A stretch of DNA of 34,031 nt from a virus (taxonomy: Duplodnaviria; Caudoviricetes). Of this stretch, positions 22,701 to 27,131 are shown piece after piece. Under the pieces are notes generated by a model. The model was not told where the DNA came from and made no database searches. It saw nothing but the letters and a program-made list of their open reading frames with translations. The stretch is from positions 1 to 34,031 of the IMG/VR virus record IMGVR_UViG_3300025653_000125. One strand, given 5' to 3'. A program made the translations under genes and the position numbers. Numbering within the stretch: the first letter of the stretch is position 1; each line of letters begins with the position of its first letter.

Positions 22701-23956
22701 TTGCCGCACGAAAATCTGGGGTCGAGAGAACAACTGCTGCGACCGTGGCTAAAGACCTGACAGTTAACTTCAATCGCAAAGGGGAGCTCAGCTCCGCAAC
22801 AGACACCTTCTACCTATTCTTCAACGCTGCAATACAGGGCAACGTGAATACTGCCGAGGCTGTATTGAAGTCAGGCAGGGATGGCGAGAAGCTTACCAAG
22901 GCTCGAATGGTCGCCGCGGGGCTTGTGCTTGCCGGGTTTGCAAGGACGTTGATAAACATCTGGATGTCTGGTGAGGATGAGGATGGAGAGTCTACCTACC
23001 TCGACTACAACGAGTATGCCCTAAAATCAGGAATGCTATTCCGTATCAGTGATGAGCAAGGCTTTGCATTGCCTAAGGCGTATGGATGGGGCTTCTACGA
23101 TGACGTAGGTCGTTTGGGCGCTGAGCTGGCTATGGACCTCAAAAGTCCAGATCAGGTCGGTGTGGATCTGCTGACATCTATGGATCGGCACTTTAACCCC
23201 CAGGGTATACACGCCGTCTCAGATGACCGAGATGCGTCAGAGTCAGTAATGCTGAAGCTAGGCTTCCTCGCCGGACCGGACGTTACTGACTTCGCTCTAG
23301 AGCAAGCTGCAAATATCAACTACTTCGGGGAGAACATTACGATCCCCCAGAACCCGTTCTTGGTGCAGAAGCCCAAGTCACAAAAGACCCGCAGGCGCAC
23401 GTCTGATTGGATTGAGAGCACAACTAAAACCATTGCCGAGCTGAGTGGTGGTGACGACTACATCCCGGGCAGCGTTGAGGTCAACCCAGATAGAGTTCAG
23501 CACGGATTAGATTTCCTGCTCGGAGGTGTTGGTAGGTTCTTCAATGATGCAGCCGACACTGCGACCAAGTCTCTGAATGACAGACCCGGAGACCTGAAGG
23601 CTGACGACGTACCAATCATCCGCACGTTCTTCCCTAGAGTCAGTCAATACAAGGATCGAGTTACTTATTACGACTCTCGCAACGAGTGGCTCCAGTATCG
23701 AACGCAGATCAGAGACGCTGACGCAGAGGAAAGCAAGACACTTGTAGAGCGTTACGGCAGAGAGCTGTACCAGTTCGAGACCTTCCACAGTCAAGCAGAG
23801 AAGCAGCTCAGAAAACTGTCCAAGCAGAAGAAGCTACTCGAGGATAACGGTGTCATCGATCCAATGGTGCGATATGAAAAGCTGGACGAGATCACGGCTC
23901 AACAGGAGCTGATCTTCGACCGGTACAACAAGAAGTGGAACGAAGTTAAACCCTAA
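16766..23956 (+). CDS. Large polyvalent ejection protein (zincin-like metallopeptidase, HhH-glycosylase-like domain, C-terminal LPD38-like region)
   Basis: 2396 aa. Gly/Ala-rich N-terminal helices with 'EGFTEFTQE'. HEVMH at 18707-18721 with downstream ELFAQ at 18971-18985. 'PGIGNKVFSF...DVVILDRIQ' at ~20291-20371. C-terminal 'YVPLKG', 'NPIRDVQT', 'DLTVNFNRKG...FYLFFNAAIQG', 'LPKAYGWG'. Confidence 0.85.
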   Translation: MAGIVLGRKTPFAPELPEQKTEDLGDKLTEGGILADTQFGKGLDAGIDQTQGLGGALKATVGSAIGNEEWVDSGLAYYRKKMQDAANVGANVTSVEEIDSFGDFTDWAGYTLGTLVPDVVGGGVAGVAAKAGTKKLLKNKLEQEADTIGKRLAEKVTQKNYDAAAGFVGYSAAQNTASNFAEIYEETGLEAPGKALAVGVAQGALDRFGVPQRAFKRMFGSDGLEQFNDDIAERVFMSKDYVLAVGREAVKAAGVEGFTEFTQEFLGRAAVAWAEENLPEDQQREFLEIVADERSKSMYINSFASGVLAGTAGGAAIQATKVGGRRPDQPGPEGPEPFSEEAEQARINRMPEARRKVIELTQAETTIDPEGGPTPEPTPGTVALTPEETTIQPGQDPSMDILLEGYDRPPAEPMLYWGNMPVPLQKQLIVDGMEDDIATEADLRAAAEKLEGTERSSALNAINASVNRGTRRAVPLETQQTDEFGGEIFMVSTPETLSQKIESFNDAAARGPIPKTTGEGEFASQGVTEADINFNITPSRGPVSMLTEDGRTVQLPGLTDFVGSTDPTANPALEEAASIYLDLAMRGVPKEFRDLVKGTHVLSTEDIPHDAEAAFLDRSSVIGMRFDHLLEGADDEQRARRNRFNTAHEVMHAADFRNGYSSAIDHFKMKVEDIDGDGQPDISMGRAIEEIFDLWESDAEGAGFFSYPLDALYDNIAKQNGDPEKIQGVLDGAREELFAQLGAAYVANEGSIQKSLPFGHSIIEDIFANPVPAEQLVTNDVRGLYGNQEANQETPVSEGAGVPRDVRTPAESGGVQVQDEGGAGGTGGPSLVEEQASESVGGTPEPEAGDSAGQVLPVERTELRQSLLQSIPEGGISSAQLSEQVGQEEANFRDLLDQMEEDGEITSELTADGELYLPASSEPKFIKKGAEYLLQNSRGKTTGKASVTKAINPKNAAKQIPALQALSDRHDDPLSSPAAWLRFERDLTGSNTTIRPPHGLISLYNDIDTWVATHSRLSDQQVQAAREGLETAREMGEVYASGEATPDITGKLMLWGIMSRMLTASAQEAGFVDLLTKMPGAKDDPAGDIIQKTLDGTMTEQDVKSWEKAVKRLIPEGSFGRSGTSNANDWAKFMLKMSERTEDGRSRLEELHDLVGNRSISTVDVRRQFQGMINNPGIGNKVFSFLMLMTGRDDVVILDRIQLNSMWDAGRYGKLIYDDIADEFDKGHGLARYEALEKSLNQRIKELYRRLGREDEGSVGRYHWESWVLNSGQVVAHPTMKGLLDDARGADTPYADMGAPEGKMNLFRYGAIYARDPDGNPYFLYADQSNKPYRFTPKKFSEFLDQVKLRKRNIIPKGFKVSEYDKGFPWYEADGVNRDNLDALIREYAEREAVESDYAVEETDVQDDADVGGQPEAERPRYIKGKRTPDNSPPHEVTFNLDDEYLVDRDLSQRLNRLMPKSFSKALVDRYGRLKELEDRLAASVGMDRMPASVSAYDAENLMHSKVQNQIEEFENDYIKPIAAMMKAADLDGEQVGLYLLAKHAPERNRVIAEREQAMRAEQIDRLNKALEDSMGALDRPVESITERLDKLENEPLRFQDTGSGMTDSEAESVIATAKLEDKYDALEEISSKVYEMLSDMRQNMVDKGLLDDETKEDWQDTYEFYVPLKGFAALEQDGDMVAGTGAKGFSVTGKESFKAKGRVTMPANPLLNAFVDGETKIIRAEKNVIAQRLLKMLSKFKSDQWSVYPPTQYPFQTPPDDISVRKSKSQMASEMRPDDDKVHRYIQVKRNGQDHFIEIRDKELNRNLQAGSVGIFNSEVESFNQIMTFMREFQNFRRDMIINYNPSWGLVNPIRDVQTGLAFILAEQDSRAGRLKDKDLIWEVVKGWGPSWKALWRDARGNEPKTDEAKELAQFVKDYKDDGAPTGIAYSKSIDEQARRIETLIKRGKIREAFAYLGKVVEDFNQVMENVTRLSTYIAARKSGVERTTAATVAKDLTVNFNRKGELSSATDTFYLFFNAAIQGNVNTAEAVLKSGRDGEKLTKARMVAAGLVLAGFARTLINIWMSGEDEDGESTYLDYNEYALKSGMLFRISDEQGFALPKAYGWGFYDDVGRLGAELAMDLKSPDQVGVDLLTSMDRHFNPQGIHAVSDDRDASESVMLKLGFLAGPDVTDFALEQAANINYFGENITIPQNPFLVQKPKSQKTRRRTSDWIESTTKTIAELSGGDDYIPGSVEVNPDRVQHGLDFLLGGVGRFFNDAADTATKSLNDRPGDLKADDVPIIRTFFPRVSQYKDRVTYYDSRNEWLQYRTQIRDADAEESKTLVERYGRELYQFETFHSQAEKQLRKLSKQKKLLEDNGVIDPMVRYEKLDEITAQQELIFDRYNKKWNEVKP
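19119..19340 (+). CDS. Candidate overprinted small gene nested in the polyvalent protein gene (73 aa)
   Basis: +1 frame; RBS-like TAAGAGGT at 19107-19114; protein-like amphipathic helices, while the host frame here is a low-complexity G/E/P linker. Confidence 0.6.
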   Translation: MGIRKLTKKPLSPKVQEYLETFGHLPSQEAFKFKTKEELEELADLALSRNKPVKAWAERPNLKLGTVQDKYYQ

Positions 23957-23966
23957 GGAGATAGTC

Positions 23967-24074
23967 ATGCACGACGGTAAACCCTGTAAAGGAAAGCGCG
24001 GCAAAAAATCCATGAAAAAGGCTTTGCCCAAGCGCGGTCAACGAGCTGCGACTAACAAGCGCAAGCGAGGATAG
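23967..24074 (+). CDS. Very basic microprotein (35 aa, MHDGKPCKGKRGKKSMKK...RKRG)
   Basis: Below the track cutoff; strong RBS AAGGAG; fills the gap after the giant gene. Confidence 0.65.
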   Translation: MHDGKPCKGKRGKKSMKKALPKRGQRAATNKRKRG

Positions 24075-24078
24075 TTCG

Positions 24079-24243
24079 GTGGCTAATGAGCCCACAGACA
24101 AAGCCCTGTATGCCCGGGTCAAAGCCGCAGCAAAGAAGAAGTTCAAGGTCTATCCATCAGCCTACGCCAACGCTTGGCTTGTGCGTGAATACAAGAAGCG
24201 TGGCGGTAAGTACAAGACGGTGAAGAAGCGTGGCAAAAAGTGA
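24079..24243 (+). CDS. Basic microprotein (54 aa, DUF5872-like)
   Basis: GTG start with GAGGA RBS; 'PTDKALYARVKAAAKKKFKVYPSAYANAWLVREYKKRGGKY' is a motif I recognise from marine phage small proteins. Confidence 0.75.
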   Translation: MANEPTDKALYARVKAAAKKKFKVYPSAYANAWLVREYKKRGGKYKTVKKRGKK

Positions 24244-24496
24244 CGGCGGTCTGACACGCTGGTTCAAAGAAGACTGGCGCGATATCAAGACGGGTAAGAA
24301 GTGTGGACGGTCAGGGAAGGACAAGAAGAAGCGTCCTTATCCTGCTTGTCGTCCCTCGAAACGTGTTTCGTCGAAGACACCAAAGACAAGTGGGGAAATG
24401 TCTTCCGCTGAAAAGGCTCGCATGAAGAAGGCGAAGACAAGCTCGAAGAAGATACCGTATTCTCATCAGAGAAAGCGAACTGCGGCGAAGCGCTAA
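24230..24496 (+). CDS. Basic small protein (88 aa), usual partner of the preceding family
   Basis: 'GGLTRWFKEDWRDIKTGKKCGR...YPACRPSKRVSSKTPKT' motif; overlaps the previous stop. Confidence 0.75.
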   Translation: MAKSDGGLTRWFKEDWRDIKTGKKCGRSGKDKKKRPYPACRPSKRVSSKTPKTSGEMSSAEKARMKKAKTSSKKIPYSHQRKRTAAKR

Positions 24497-24692
24497 CGCA
24501 GTTAAGAAAATCCACCACGTCCGTTTTGGTGCGTTGCACCACGACGATATCGATGTCCACGAGCGACAGATCCTTACCCGACTTACGCAGCTCCTTTAAG
24601 AAGTCATGCCTGTGCTTGGACGTATCATAAAACGTCGTTACCGGCGGACATTCGTTGTGATCTACAATGCGATAGATGTTCCAAGTGGTCAT
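24285..24692 (-). CDS. Hypothetical protein next to attP (135 aa; 3' half antisense to the 88-aa gene)
   Basis: Strong RBS GGAGGT before ATG; the first ~65 aa look globular and occupy otherwise empty sequence. Confidence 0.55.
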   Translation of the reverse strand: MTTWNIYRIVDHNECPPVTTFYDTSKHRHDFLKELRKSGKDLSLVDIDIVVVQRTKTDVVDFLNCVSASPQFAFSDENTVSSSSLSSPSSCEPFQRKTFPHLSLVSSTKHVSRDDKQDKDASSCPSLTVHTSYPS

Positions 24693-24703
24693 GATTTACC
24701 TCC

Positions 24704-24758
24704 AAATAAAGCGGGTATCTCACCCCCCGCAAAGGCGGGTCGGATGGGGTGAGAACCC
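24704..24758 (-). terminator. Long hairpin plus U-rich tail beyond attP (tI/sib-like position for the int transcript)
   Basis: Minus strand: GGGTTCTCACCCC...GGGGTGAGATACCC stem followed by GCTTTATTT. Confidence 0.5.
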
Positions 24759-24820
24759 AAACAAGGGTTGGAGTCCATGGGGCAGAATGCAGCTATCGAG
24801 CGCATCTCATAAGTGCTTTG

Positions 24821-24833
24821 TAAGTTATTGATA
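24821..24833 (-). promoter_or_regulatory. IHF-like site in the left attP arm
   Basis: Reverse complement TATCAATAACTTA fits WATCAANNNNTTR exactly. Confidence 0.6.
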
Positions 24834-24866
24834 TGATGAAAAAAGACAGAAATAACAAGGGGTTCC

Positions 24867-24914
24867 ACCTTGCCAAGGTTGAGGTCGCGAGTTCGAATCT
24901 CGTTTCCCGCTCCA
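24867..24914 (+). mobile_element. attP core: 3' 48 nt of tRNA-Gly(GCC)
   Basis: ACCTTGCCAAGGTTGAGGTCGCGAGTTCGAATCTCGTTTCCCGCTCCA contains the anticodon loop, T-arm, 3' acceptor strand and CCA. The 5' half is absent. It lies ~100 nt downstream of the integrase stop. Confidence 0.92.
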
Positions 24915-24934
24915 ATTTCTGTTTCGTCAACAGC

Positions 24935-24946
24935 ATCAACAAGTTA
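24935..24946 (+). promoter_or_regulatory. IHF-like site in the right attP arm
   Basis: ATCAACAAGTTA fits ATCAANNNNTTR (the first W position mismatches). Confidence 0.5.
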
Positions 24947-24978
24947 CGTCTGCCCCTATGGGGTCCAACCTAACTGTA

Positions 24979-25021
24979 AGGGACTCGGCGTGTTCAACGA
25001 ACCCGGGATCCCTCGTTTTTT
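24979..25021 (+). terminator. Intrinsic terminator facing the att core (would end the host tRNA transcript in the prophage)
   Basis: AGGGACTCGG...CCGGGATCCCT stem followed by CGTTTTTT. Confidence 0.6.
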
Positions 25022-25911
25022 CAAGGTTGGAGTACCCCTTCCAACCTGTTAATTACCACTCTCTTATGCTCGGTTCCCAAGTGGGTGTACCGGGCAATCG
25101 AGTTCAGGCTACTCCAGTTGCCAAGCTCCTTGAGCTCGACGGCTTGAGTGCCGTTCTTTATGTGCAGACTGGCGAACGTGTGGCGCAGAGTGTGGAACGT
25201 TGTTCCGGCAGGTAGACCTGCATTCCGCACCGCTTTTCTCCATGTCTTATTGCACACCGCTTTTACCGATAGCGGGTTACCACACTGCTGGTAAAACACG
25301 TATGCAATCTCACCTACCCGGGGGCGGTTGAACTGCAGATCCAGCTTGTCGTTGTGACGCCGCCTCAGTAAAGCTTGAAGCGTTTTGCCGATGGGAATAC
25401 ACAACGGTTTGTTGTTCTTCATCTCGGCTGCAGGTATGACGATCTCTTTGAAATCATCCGAAACATACCGCCACCGTAGGAGTCTGACATTGTTGTTTCG
25501 CATCCCGGTGTGGACTGCGAACTTCGCCATGTCAGCTCTCAGCGGATCTAGGTTTTGGAGTAACCGTTGTATCTGGTCGGGCTCCAAATAGTTAGTCCGC
25601 TTGTTCTCCTCGAGCAGCTTAATTTTTGGTGGGACAAACTGTAGGTCCAGCTCCTCGACACCGAAGTTAAGCATCGCTCTCAGATAGGTCAGGTAACAAT
25701 TGACGGTAGCCTGTGCGAGACCGCGTTCCTCGACCAGTTCCTGCTGCATCATATAGATGTCAGCTTTCTTGACCTCGTCGATTGGTCGGTCGCCCCACCG
25801 GGCTTTCATCTCTCCGATGACCCTACGTGCGACTTCGTTTCGTTCCTTGCCTCGAGAGCTTTTGCTCTTGAGATAGACACCTGCAAGTTCATTAAACGTC
25901 CATTGCTTCAT
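25021..25911 (-). CDS. int: Tyrosine integrase (likely start 25911, 296 aa)
   Basis: Catalytic set TGMR, MKN, FHTLRH, LGNW, RYTH; core-binding 'ATVNCYLTYLRAMLN'; GGAGAG RBS before MKQWTF; adjacent to attP. Confidence 0.93.
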   Translation of the reverse strand: MKQWTFNELAGVYLKSKSSRGKERNEVARRVIGEMKARWGDRPIDEVKKADIYMMQQELVEERGLAQATVNCYLTYLRAMLNFGVEELDLQFVPPKIKLLEENKRTNYLEPDQIQRLLQNLDPLRADMAKFAVHTGMRNNNVRLLRWRYVSDDFKEIVIPAAEMKNNKPLCIPIGKTLQALLRRRHNDKLDLQFNRPRVGEIAYVFYQQCGNPLSVKAVCNKTWRKAVRNAGLPAGTTFHTLRHTFASLHIKNGTQAVELKELGNWSSLNSIARYTHLGTEHKRVVINRLEGVLQP

Positions 25912-25954
25912 TTCATCTCTCCATGAATGTGGAGATGCGCTCGAAGCTTTGGCG

Positions 25955-25983
25955 ATCATATGATGTTCTTTCTGCACAGTCCA
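25955..25983 (-). promoter_or_regulatory. Putative sigma70 promoter of int (TGGACT-17-TATGAT)
   Basis: Correct spacing; lies just downstream of the early-operon terminator; predicted +1 near 25948. Confidence 0.55.
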
Positions 25984-26000
25984 ACCTCTTAATCCGACTT

Positions 26001-26022
26001 AAAAGAGCCCCCCGAAGGGGGC
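26001..26022 (-). terminator. Intrinsic terminator of the leftward early operon
   Basis: GCCCCC-TTCG-GGGGGC followed by TCTTTT. Confidence 0.8.
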
Positions 26023-26029
26023 AAGCACA

Positions 26030-26148
26030 CTATGAAAGATCAGCTCGTAACGTGAGCCACCCGGAATTTAGTGAGGCGTTTTGGACACCGGTGCCTCTAG
26101 CCAGCTTTCACGGGAGCGGAATCCCTGTCCTATCTCATGGAGTGAGAA
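26030..26148 (-). ncRNA. Candidate structured RNA between the last early gene and the terminator
   Basis: Nested stems TCTCA/TGAGA, GGGA/TCCC, TGAAAG/CTTTCA, GAGGC/GCCTC and GCTC/GAGC; no family recognised. Confidence 0.4.
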
Positions 26149-26385
26149 TTAGTTAATCACTTCGCCCTCGGCGATTTCAGTTTCGCCATCGTCCGTGGGT
26201 AGAAGTTTTTGCAGGTCAATGTTGATAACCTCCAGCCCAATTCGAGCAAGCTCCAGGGTCGTGCCCATAACAGCCAGTGCGTTCTGACCGTTCTGTGCGC
26301 GAACCAAAAGCTCTTTGCAGGGTTGGCTTAGATCATCAACGTTGTAAGTTTGACCGTTGACTTGGATTTGTTGCTGTTCGCTCAT
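26149..26385 (-). CDS. Small hypothetical protein (possibly DUF6447-like)
   Basis: RBS AGGAG; 'IQVNGQTYNVDDLS' followed by a helical hairpin. Confidence 0.7.
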   Translation of the reverse strand: MSEQQQIQVNGQTYNVDDLSQPCKELLVRAQNGQNALAVMGTTLELARIGLEVINIDLQKLLPTDDGETEIAEGEVIN

Positions 26386-26777
26386 CGCGTCTTTCTCCTA
26401 GCGTTGTCGCGTATCAATCGATAAGAGCGTGGCGCGTGAAGCGACAGCTCTGCTTGGGGTGAATGTCGATCCGTGAATGAATGCCCTCTGCCACATACCT
26501 CGCAGTACGGTTCAGCTTGGGCAATCCTGTCGCGGACACCAACCATCTCAATCGCCACTTCTGGATTAAGCTCCAGTGGATCATCGCCAACCCGGATGAC
26601 GTGCTCTTCAACACCCAACTCTGATTTGACATTGATGATCCCTTCCTGACGGTCTCGATAATTTCTGACGCCGCGAATCCATATGCGGTGGTCGAAGGAT
26701 GCGTTTGGATTTTTGTCATCTAACTCATAGCCTCCGTAAACCACCGTATTTACAGCTCTGGTGATTCGCAGTCCCAT
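26382..26777 (-). CDS. Hypothetical protein, possibly a tandem CsrA/RsmA-like RNA-binding protein with a CxxC insert
   Basis: N-terminus 'MGLRITRAV' and C-terminus 'QAELSLHAPRSYRLIRDN' resemble CsrA beta1 and beta4-beta5. The gene itself is well supported; the function is tentative. Confidence 0.5.
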   Translation of the reverse strand: MGLRITRAVNTVVYGGYELDDKNPNASFDHRIWIRGVRNYRDRQEGIINVKSELGVEEHVIRVGDDPLELNPEVAIEMVGVRDRIAQAEPYCEVCGRGHSFTDRHSPQAELSLHAPRSYRLIRDNARRKTR

Positions 26778-26789
26778 ACATTGGTGTCC

Positions 26790-27131
26790 TTAAATTGCGA
26801 ACGGGTCCTCTCCGAAGGGGTCGCTCGCTGGTTTTGGTGCGGTCTCGGCTGGACTTTCATTTGCTGCCGGCGGGAGCCAAAGATCAAAGCCCAACTGAGG
26901 ATTTCCAGATTGGTTGATCTCTTGTGTCACCTTGATGATGAAATCCAGCTTCTCTCCGTTTGGGGTGTCGATAGCAAGGTTGCCACTCCATACGGGTATT
27001 AATTGAGCTTTGCGCTTTGGGTCAAGATCCCGGTACCACTGATGGGTCATGAGGCGATTCTCTTCTTGTTCTCGCCTGTCCTGATCCATCTTCCATGCCT
27101 TGCCCTTGAGGGGTTTGCGTTCATATGCCAT
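26790..27131 (-). CDS. Putative single-stranded DNA-binding protein
   Basis: Follows ERF and exonuclease; 'PVWSGNLAI' strand, Pro/Ala linker and acidic aromatic tail DPFGEDPFAI. Confidence 0.55.
   Translation of the reverse strand: MAYERKPLKGKAWKMDQDRREQEENRLMTHQWYRDLDPKRKAQLIPVWSGNLAIDTPNGEKLDFIIKVTQEINQSGNPQLGFDLWLPPAANESPAETAPKPASDPFGEDPFAI

Follow-up and report, generated by a model that had tools for sequence, protein, structure and literature searches.

The int-attP locus

The window, that is, the whole 34,031-nt stretch of DNA analysed here, is a 34-kb virus record with a completeness estimate of 63%. Its sequence was found mostly in freshwater-labelled runs and in some marine ones. 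In the lambda-like early region, O-like and primase-helicase genes diverge from a repressor-like ORF, and the leftward order is ERF, YqaJ, small ORFs, a terminator-like hairpin (26022-26007), int and attP (Table 1). The int product is a tyrosine integrase with the R-K-H-R-H-Y catalytic residues, of which R138, K165, H240, R243 and Y275 are conserved. Its ORF begins directly at the core-binding domain and has no N-terminal arm-binding domain of the lambda type. Integrases of cultured phages share only ~37% identity over 74% of Int, and the genome contigs scanned (17 of 64 parts) yielded no close Int relative (best 32%).

Table 1. Coordinates of the features in and around int and attP
Feature	Position	Strand	Basis or remark
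Intrinsic-terminator-like hairpin, 5' of int promoter	25997..26022	-	sequence; also in L002, L003
Predicted int promoter, TGGACT-17-TATGAT	25955..25983	-	sequence; corresponding -10 hexamers occur in relatives
5' segment ("lock"), predicted first 17 nt of int mRNA	25932..25948	-	pairs with RBS/start codon or with distal segment
Predicted OFF hairpin	25905..25947	-	folding
int, tyrosine integrase, 296 aa	25911..25021	-	PF00589, E 1.4e-25; phrog_1
Near IHF-like box	24934..24946	+	sequence; one mismatch to consensus
att core, 3' half of tRNA-Gly(GCC)	24867..24914	+	Rfam tRNA match; tRNA-bearing contigs
Weak terminator-like hairpin, core to distal segment	24853..24875	-	-7.3 kcal/mol; missing in L003
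Far IHF box	24821..24833	-	perfect consensus match, sole perfect one in window
Distal segment ("key"), complementary to 5' segment, beyond core	24791..24808	-	sequence; relatives
Core-like repeat GGTTGGA, likely Int site in far arm	24766..24772	+	sequence; conserved in L002-L004
Strong hairpin with U-rich tail, candidate 3' end of attP-spanning transcript	24704..24758	-	-28.4 kcal/mol

The attP has the architecture of a tyrosine-integrase site in a tRNA gene, a tRNA 3'-half core with IHF-type boxes on either side. The Rfam tRNA match spans 24846-24911 (E 0.022, below gathering), and tRNA-bearing contigs agree with the window over the core and diverge on both sides. Apart from this tRNA half, no curated Rfam family has an E below 1 across 23900-26400, and the exact tRNA-Gly core has no match in 401 sampled genomes. 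Both att boxes are judged against WATCAANNNNTTR, which we take to be the IHF consensus. The far-arm GGTTGGA has partners at 24964-24970, 25025-25031 and 25040-25046, and all four arm repeats resemble the core-type sequence CAACC. Core-like arm repeats together with an Int lacking the arm-binding domain make a simplified intasome possible, for which a Brujita-type integrase is presumably a lead.

An inverted repeat spans int and the core. The 13-mer reported in the initial annotation does occur at 24796-24808 (+) and inverted at 25932-25944, and its extension to 17 bp by AGCT (24791-24794 and 25945-25948), with base 24795 bulged, is equally present. The int promoter postulated there can be read as TGGACT-17-TATGAT, from which a +1 near 25948 is predicted; it is the only sigma-70-like match in 23500-27000, and weak alone, 2.6 being expected from shuffles. 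The U-tailed hairpin at 24758-24704 exists, and by eye is altered yet still pairing in L003, but it is not the first terminator candidate as had been claimed, since the weaker hairpin at 24875-24853 lies before the distal copy. The window contains 12 exact inverted repeats of at least 13 bp; this single repeat is therefore not significant, and the case rests on relatives.

Several other elements lie nearby. An 18-nt motif (26041-26058, minus strand) just 5' of the upstream terminator is identical in L002 and L003, and related hairpin-like motifs stand before U-runs in clusters 5, 8, 12 and 15; it is a possible antitermination or operator element. Variant contigs from DNA runs X3, X9 and X6 diverge at ~26041-26152 and skip 26181-26258, representing co-occurring relatives. 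Farther upstream, a 131-aa ORF with a CxxC motif (26382-26777, minus strand) has 42% identity to an ORF upstream of the L417 int and no Pfam or PHROG match; its product might target leaders containing GGA. A hairpin at ~24977-25013 (minus strand) follows the int stop directly, and its pairing is kept with altered letters in L002 and L003 (by eye). Directly after the 3' hairpin, a 135-aa ORF (24285-24692, minus strand; homologous starts in L002 and L003) is on the int strand and so would be linked to int only with attP intact. Beyond it, two overlapping plus-strand ORFs each match one half of DUF5872, 24079-24243 the first (profile 1-49) and 24230-24496 the second (51-114).

Translation starts at and upstream of int

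The AUG in UGGAGAGAUG (25918) opens just ATG-AAA-TGA, and the int start is the one at 25911. This mini-ORF (25910-25918, minus strand) overlaps the int start and is not found in L002. An in-frame GTG/ATG frame of 22 codons with a purine-rich SD-like stretch lies 5' of int (25977-25912, minus strand), and its GTG at 25977 would extend Int to 318 aa. The frame is open in the window, L002, L003 and the proteins P0003, P0004, P0007, P0008, P0010 and P0011, and a read-through transcript could yield the 318-aa Int. As a family-wide long form the 22-aa extension was rejected; it is confined to clusters 1 and 2 and one candidate in L057. In other relatives (L045:2594-2989, L050:2699-2998, L042:2415-2708), upstream ORFs of 98-132 aa enclose the predicted int promoter and 5' segment, and their stop abuts or overlaps the int start. 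These ORFs have no PHROG match; each may encode an excisionase, possibly with translational coupling to int.

Leader-distal complementarity across relatives

Relatives were collected by profile scans of viral contigs, metagenome contigs and genomes, which gave at least 462 matching entries, many being the same contig twice. The family consists of at least 184 entries with a score above 250, a callable start and an ORF beginning at the core-binding domain. The 171 loci with at least 280 nt downstream (up to 11 of them added outgroup; shorter loci were left out) collapsed to 93 haplotypes: 89 of the family, in 26 clusters at 70% identity, and 4 of the outgroup, which were excluded from counts. 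Complementarity between positions -45 to -12 and the 330 nt after the int stop was scored strand-symmetrically, with G·U and A·C penalised equally. Among 650 cross-clade pairs drawn from the first 27 haplotypes, the 99th percentile lies at 20, which served as the cut-off.

Leader-distal complementarity reached the cut-off in 80 of 89 haplotypes, representing 23 of 26 clusters with 28-100% identity, compared with a single haplotype (1/89) in the direct-orientation control. The clusters of L250 and L291, below the cut-off, have a G·U-rich or bulged duplex in the same place. The family integrase locus L041 has neither a key nor a recognisable att downstream, and an ORF follows directly; the outgroup L063, L065, L070 and L071 (27-29% identity) gave no match (scores 12-16). 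Where a match to the far IHF box was found, the distal segment starts -5 to +13 nt from it (69 of 72 scored haplotypes). The helices lie mostly at -42 to -15 from the AUG, on the strand that blocks the SD, and do not pair with the SD itself as in icaR. Their length is ~20 bp in some clusters and only 11-14 bp in many.

The comparison with related int-attP regions that had been proposed as a check of the repeat was carried out, and the pair proved to be conserved in position and covarying in sequence in 23/26 clusters. The paired sequences are unrelated between clusters, and both sides also change within clusters, for example between L050 and L054 (95% Int identity) and between L430 and L431 (94%). 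Furthermore, in four cluster pairs with a common promoter-side flank the pair is retained at an Int identity of only 38-54%. Chance, the alternative left by the initial annotation, is plausible for the window alone and is rejected by this pattern; the repeat is selected.

The att targets vary: tRNA-Gly, tRNA-Pro, by eye tRNA-Met-like and Ala-like, and also non-tRNA sites. In L331 and L289, the key follows the int stop at a distance of 50-90 nt and no tRNA half intervenes; the att core may fall within ~50 nt or in the int end. Among more distant integrases, 12 of 130 scored at least 21 in inverted orientation vs 5 in direct orientation, most without the layout. The long integrases L078 and L081 (22-29% identity, ~55-aa N-terminal extension) have the full layout on checking. 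Judged by these sequences, the switch class proposed below would extend to tyrosine integrases both short and long and to several kinds of att target.

Probable pairing as RNA

Mismatches within the helices are biased on the int strand: G·U outnumbers A·C 35 to 12 (p 0.001; within-cluster events are not fully independent), and 28 to 4 in the helix interior (p 2e-5). Counted at cluster level the ratio is 12:2, and the cross-clade null gives 329:348. Such an excess of G·U on the int strand is better explained by RNA than by a DNA operator, and the leader and distal segment likely pair as RNA. The bias fixes the strand and is equally compatible with action in cis or in trans, and with RNA-RNA or RNA-DNA pairing.

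In 22 of 23 cluster representatives, the best -10 match is a TAnnnT hexamer (chosen as best matches, with no background control), and it ends a median of 7 nt before the 5' helix segment. This position just before the helix makes the 5' segment the predicted mRNA start. RNA contigs touch 24711-24861 and 25829-25979 in 4 of the 6 RNA runs listed; they are sparse and unstranded, and none of those listed bridges the att core. In RNA runs X15-X18, the depth at the core stems from cellular tRNAs.

Folding of the leader and predicted opening of the RBS

The hairpin over the int Shine-Dalgarno sequence described in the initial annotation was recovered by folding, which predicts that the start codon is paired as well. 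GCUUCG pairs with 25910-25905 (the start codon region) and CAUCUC with 25919-25914; the SD GGAG is at 25922-25919. With the mRNA cut at the core, 11 of 12 pairs have probabilities of 0.79-0.99. The leader pairing is kept in L003, where joint changes affect the 5' end and codons 1-3. In 21 of 23 clusters, the predicted cost of opening the native leader exceeds that of shuffled ones.

The distal segment relieves this block in the folding model, in which leader and distal segment were joined via a short linker and the intervening 1.1 kb ignored. The opening cost falls by more than 0.5 kcal/mol in 20 of 23 clusters and increases in 2. The median drops from 8.2 to 4.8 kcal/mol, vs 7.2 with a shuffled distal segment, and the window value from 12.9 to 5.7 kcal/mol. 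The fold of the entire minus-strand RNA, suggested in the initial annotation as a check, went the other way. In this 1245-nt RNA (25948-24704) the long-range helix is not formed at equilibrium, and RBS opening is 12.1 with the far arm vs 11.7 without. The key is folded into a hairpin of its own, so that 9.5 kcal/mol must be paid to force the helix. This model speaks against the helix, though such long folds are unreliable.

Terminator-like hairpins before the key were seen in the window and 12 of 48 representatives. A conserved terminator downstream of the key was considered and is not supported, one being found in only 7 of 48.

A proposed integration-sensing switch

The locked leader and the attP-crossing key probably constitute an activating RNA switch that works only with attP intact. 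In the proposed sequence of events: i) the predicted promoter would initiate the mRNA near 25948; ii) the first 17 nt would fold onto the Shine-Dalgarno sequence and the AUG, turning translation off; iii) on free phage DNA, RNA polymerase would continue past int through the core and far IHF box, and the same RNA would thereby gain the complement of its leader ~1.1 kb downstream; iv) the key, as the covariation and the G·U bias suggest, would displace the hairpin and free the RBS, and its pairing would also shield the mRNA 5' end; and v) crossover in the tRNA-Gly core would send the key to attR, and int would then border host DNA. Placement of the key at the other prophage end follows from the established geometry of tyrosine-integrase recombination. 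With the key moved to attR, the prophage int mRNA would stay locked; Int would be made for integration, and the reaction that it catalyses would end its synthesis.

A different route would have to supply Int for excision. In some lineages only, a candidate is read-through from the upstream operon, with the in-frame upstream start in clusters 1 and 2 or the coupled upstream ORF in clusters 17, 20 and 21.

One relative, L088, represents an integrated-type junction on the int side: the tRNA-Pro is intact, the leader is retained and the complement is absent downstream. The attP-intact members of its cluster do carry the downstream complement. The L056 record stops exactly where its tRNA-like stretch ends, without the key; it was not counted as a junction because it is only 49% complete. 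No prophage with both junctions was present among the relatives found.

Alternative explanations

The key might instead act in trans, with the same activation, as a small RNA that is either processed from the 3' end of an attP-spanning transcript or transcribed from a promoter of its own. The fold of the whole mRNA, which disfavours the cis helix, agrees with this, as do the frequent location of the key within a local stem-loop (by eye) and the TATAAA-like hexamer before it in many clusters. A conserved hairpin presenting the key is not supported, however; the local structure is not significant overall (median z -0.67, the sense strand being more stable in 21/48). The TATAAA is part of the IHF box, and the near box has it too, on the opposite strand; inspection by eye showed no conserved -35 at a suitable spacing. 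Moreover, a trans key with a promoter wholly in the far arm would not sense integration. We regard this version as unlikely.

A second alternative keeps the cis duplex but reverses its effect: as a substrate for RNase III or decay, it would reduce Int with attP intact, e.g. on a long upstream transcript. The lambda-like gene order (repressor, ERF, YqaJ, terminator, int, att) and the ~20-bp duplexes of some clusters would suit such a role, and the icaR 5'-3' pairing is reported to give an RNase III substrate (PMC3868564). Many of the duplexes are just 11-14 bp, however, and the key pairs with the RBS-blocking strand rather than the RBS, with predicted opening in 20/23 clusters; a cut within the duplex would take away the blocker. 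Of the two outcomes offered by the initial annotation, freeing of the RBS fits better than RNase III decay, which we consider distinctly improbable.

It is very unlikely that the copies are DNA sites for one protein, an excisionase or repressor acting at the attP arm and the int promoter. In lambda, directionality-factor sites lie beside an IHF box, and the distal copy adjoins the far IHF box, where such sites are expected; the 5' copy overlaps the predicted +1. Dual control of this kind is known for P4 (Int/Vis) and KplE1 (IntS/TorI) (PMC2951348). DNA sites would not account for the inverted orientation throughout (80 vs 1) or the strand-specific G·U excess (28:4); nor is there a motif common across clusters, and double changes occur between near-identical integrases.

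Even less probable is an R-loop, in which the 5' end of the int RNA would pair with attP DNA as a guide or tether replacing the arm-binding domain. The family lacks that N-terminal domain, the distal copy stands at the arm position and the wobble bias would look alike. But L078 and L081 share the layout in spite of their N-terminal extension (~55 aa), the core-like arm repeats provide protein sites, and the conserved RBS hairpin points to translation control. Scarcely tenable is the last alternative, that an int-attP cassette, invertible or mobile, is bordered by the repeats, or that these arose by chance: the 12 repeats of the window and the exchange of cassettes between flanks among clusters speak for it, and against it stand the G·U bias, the absence of any match between upstream and downstream flanks (0 matches, 89 by 80) and, for inversion, the lack of a strand-changing joint in contigs of 4 DNA runs (contigs drop rare forms).

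Relation to known systems

The proposed activating, cis-acting switch is most likely a new form of att-dependent retroregulation, one that activates and works by leader pairing. In lambda, sib lowers Int through RNase III. The present locus resembles sib in that the distal element lies beyond the core, across att, where integration would cut it away from int, and in the lambda-like gene order. As lambda pI is within xis, so the predicted int promoter of clusters 17 and 20 is contained in the upstream ORF. Whereas sib is local in structure and reduces the Int made from the antiterminated pL transcript, the element here has its complement in a leader at a distance of 1.1 kb, and its predicted effect is to raise Int; its conserved feature is this complementarity and not an active local terminator or RNase III hairpin. 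Two accounts describe sib as a cis element distal to int and across att that acts post-transcriptionally and is removed by integration (PMC5300877, PMC2951348).

RNAs that displace an RBS-hiding hairpin are familiar from the anti-antisense sRNAs DsrA and RprA of rpoS and from toehold switches. In those cases the activator is a trans RNA; here it would be encoded across the recombination site of the enzyme that it regulates.

Long-range pairing to 5' regions is known in bacteria (PMC3868564, PMC5737220, PMC12697547). As in S. aureus icaR (PMC3868564) and B. subtilis hbs (PMC5737220), the two mRNA ends would pair across the coding sequence. The icaR pairing blocks the SD (PMC3868564), and that of hbs, 14 bp long, modulates RNase Y cleavage (PMC5737220). 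Neither mRNA is described as releasing an RBS from a hairpin or as having its pair separated by DNA recombination, in which the proposed int switch differs.

Integrase control that depends on the state of the element has been described for ICEclc, which has a tRNA-Gly target: through Pcirc/Pint of intB13, the excised form makes more integrase, favouring integration (PMC5812530). There the control is transcriptional, with joining across attP placing a promoter upstream of int; the element described here lies downstream of int and would act post-transcriptionally. P4 int and KplE1 intS also have int control tied to att-region sites, as here, but their autoregulation (Int/Vis, IntS/TorI) is negative and protein-bound, and the accessible text describes no leader-arm complementarity (PMC2951348). 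No leader-attP pairing switch appeared among the matches listed from the literature searched, in which older int-control papers (P22, phi80, HP1, 186) were mostly outside coverage.

Implications

On balance, we favour the view that these loci form a class of self-limiting recombination switch, widespread and undescribed, in which the int mRNA senses its own DNA substrate and no protein regulator takes part. To our knowledge, how a free-standing integrase promoter is prevented from destabilising its prophage is understood in few systems (lambda pI/sib, P4, KplE1 and ICEclc). The relatives supply natural compensatory variants. If the proposed switch is real, it suggests self-terminating integrase cassettes for strain engineering, and the leader-key signature could locate attP and the crossover side in uncultured phages. 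For the phages themselves, it would be a protein-free, activating solution, in which recombination removes the enzyme's own translation key.
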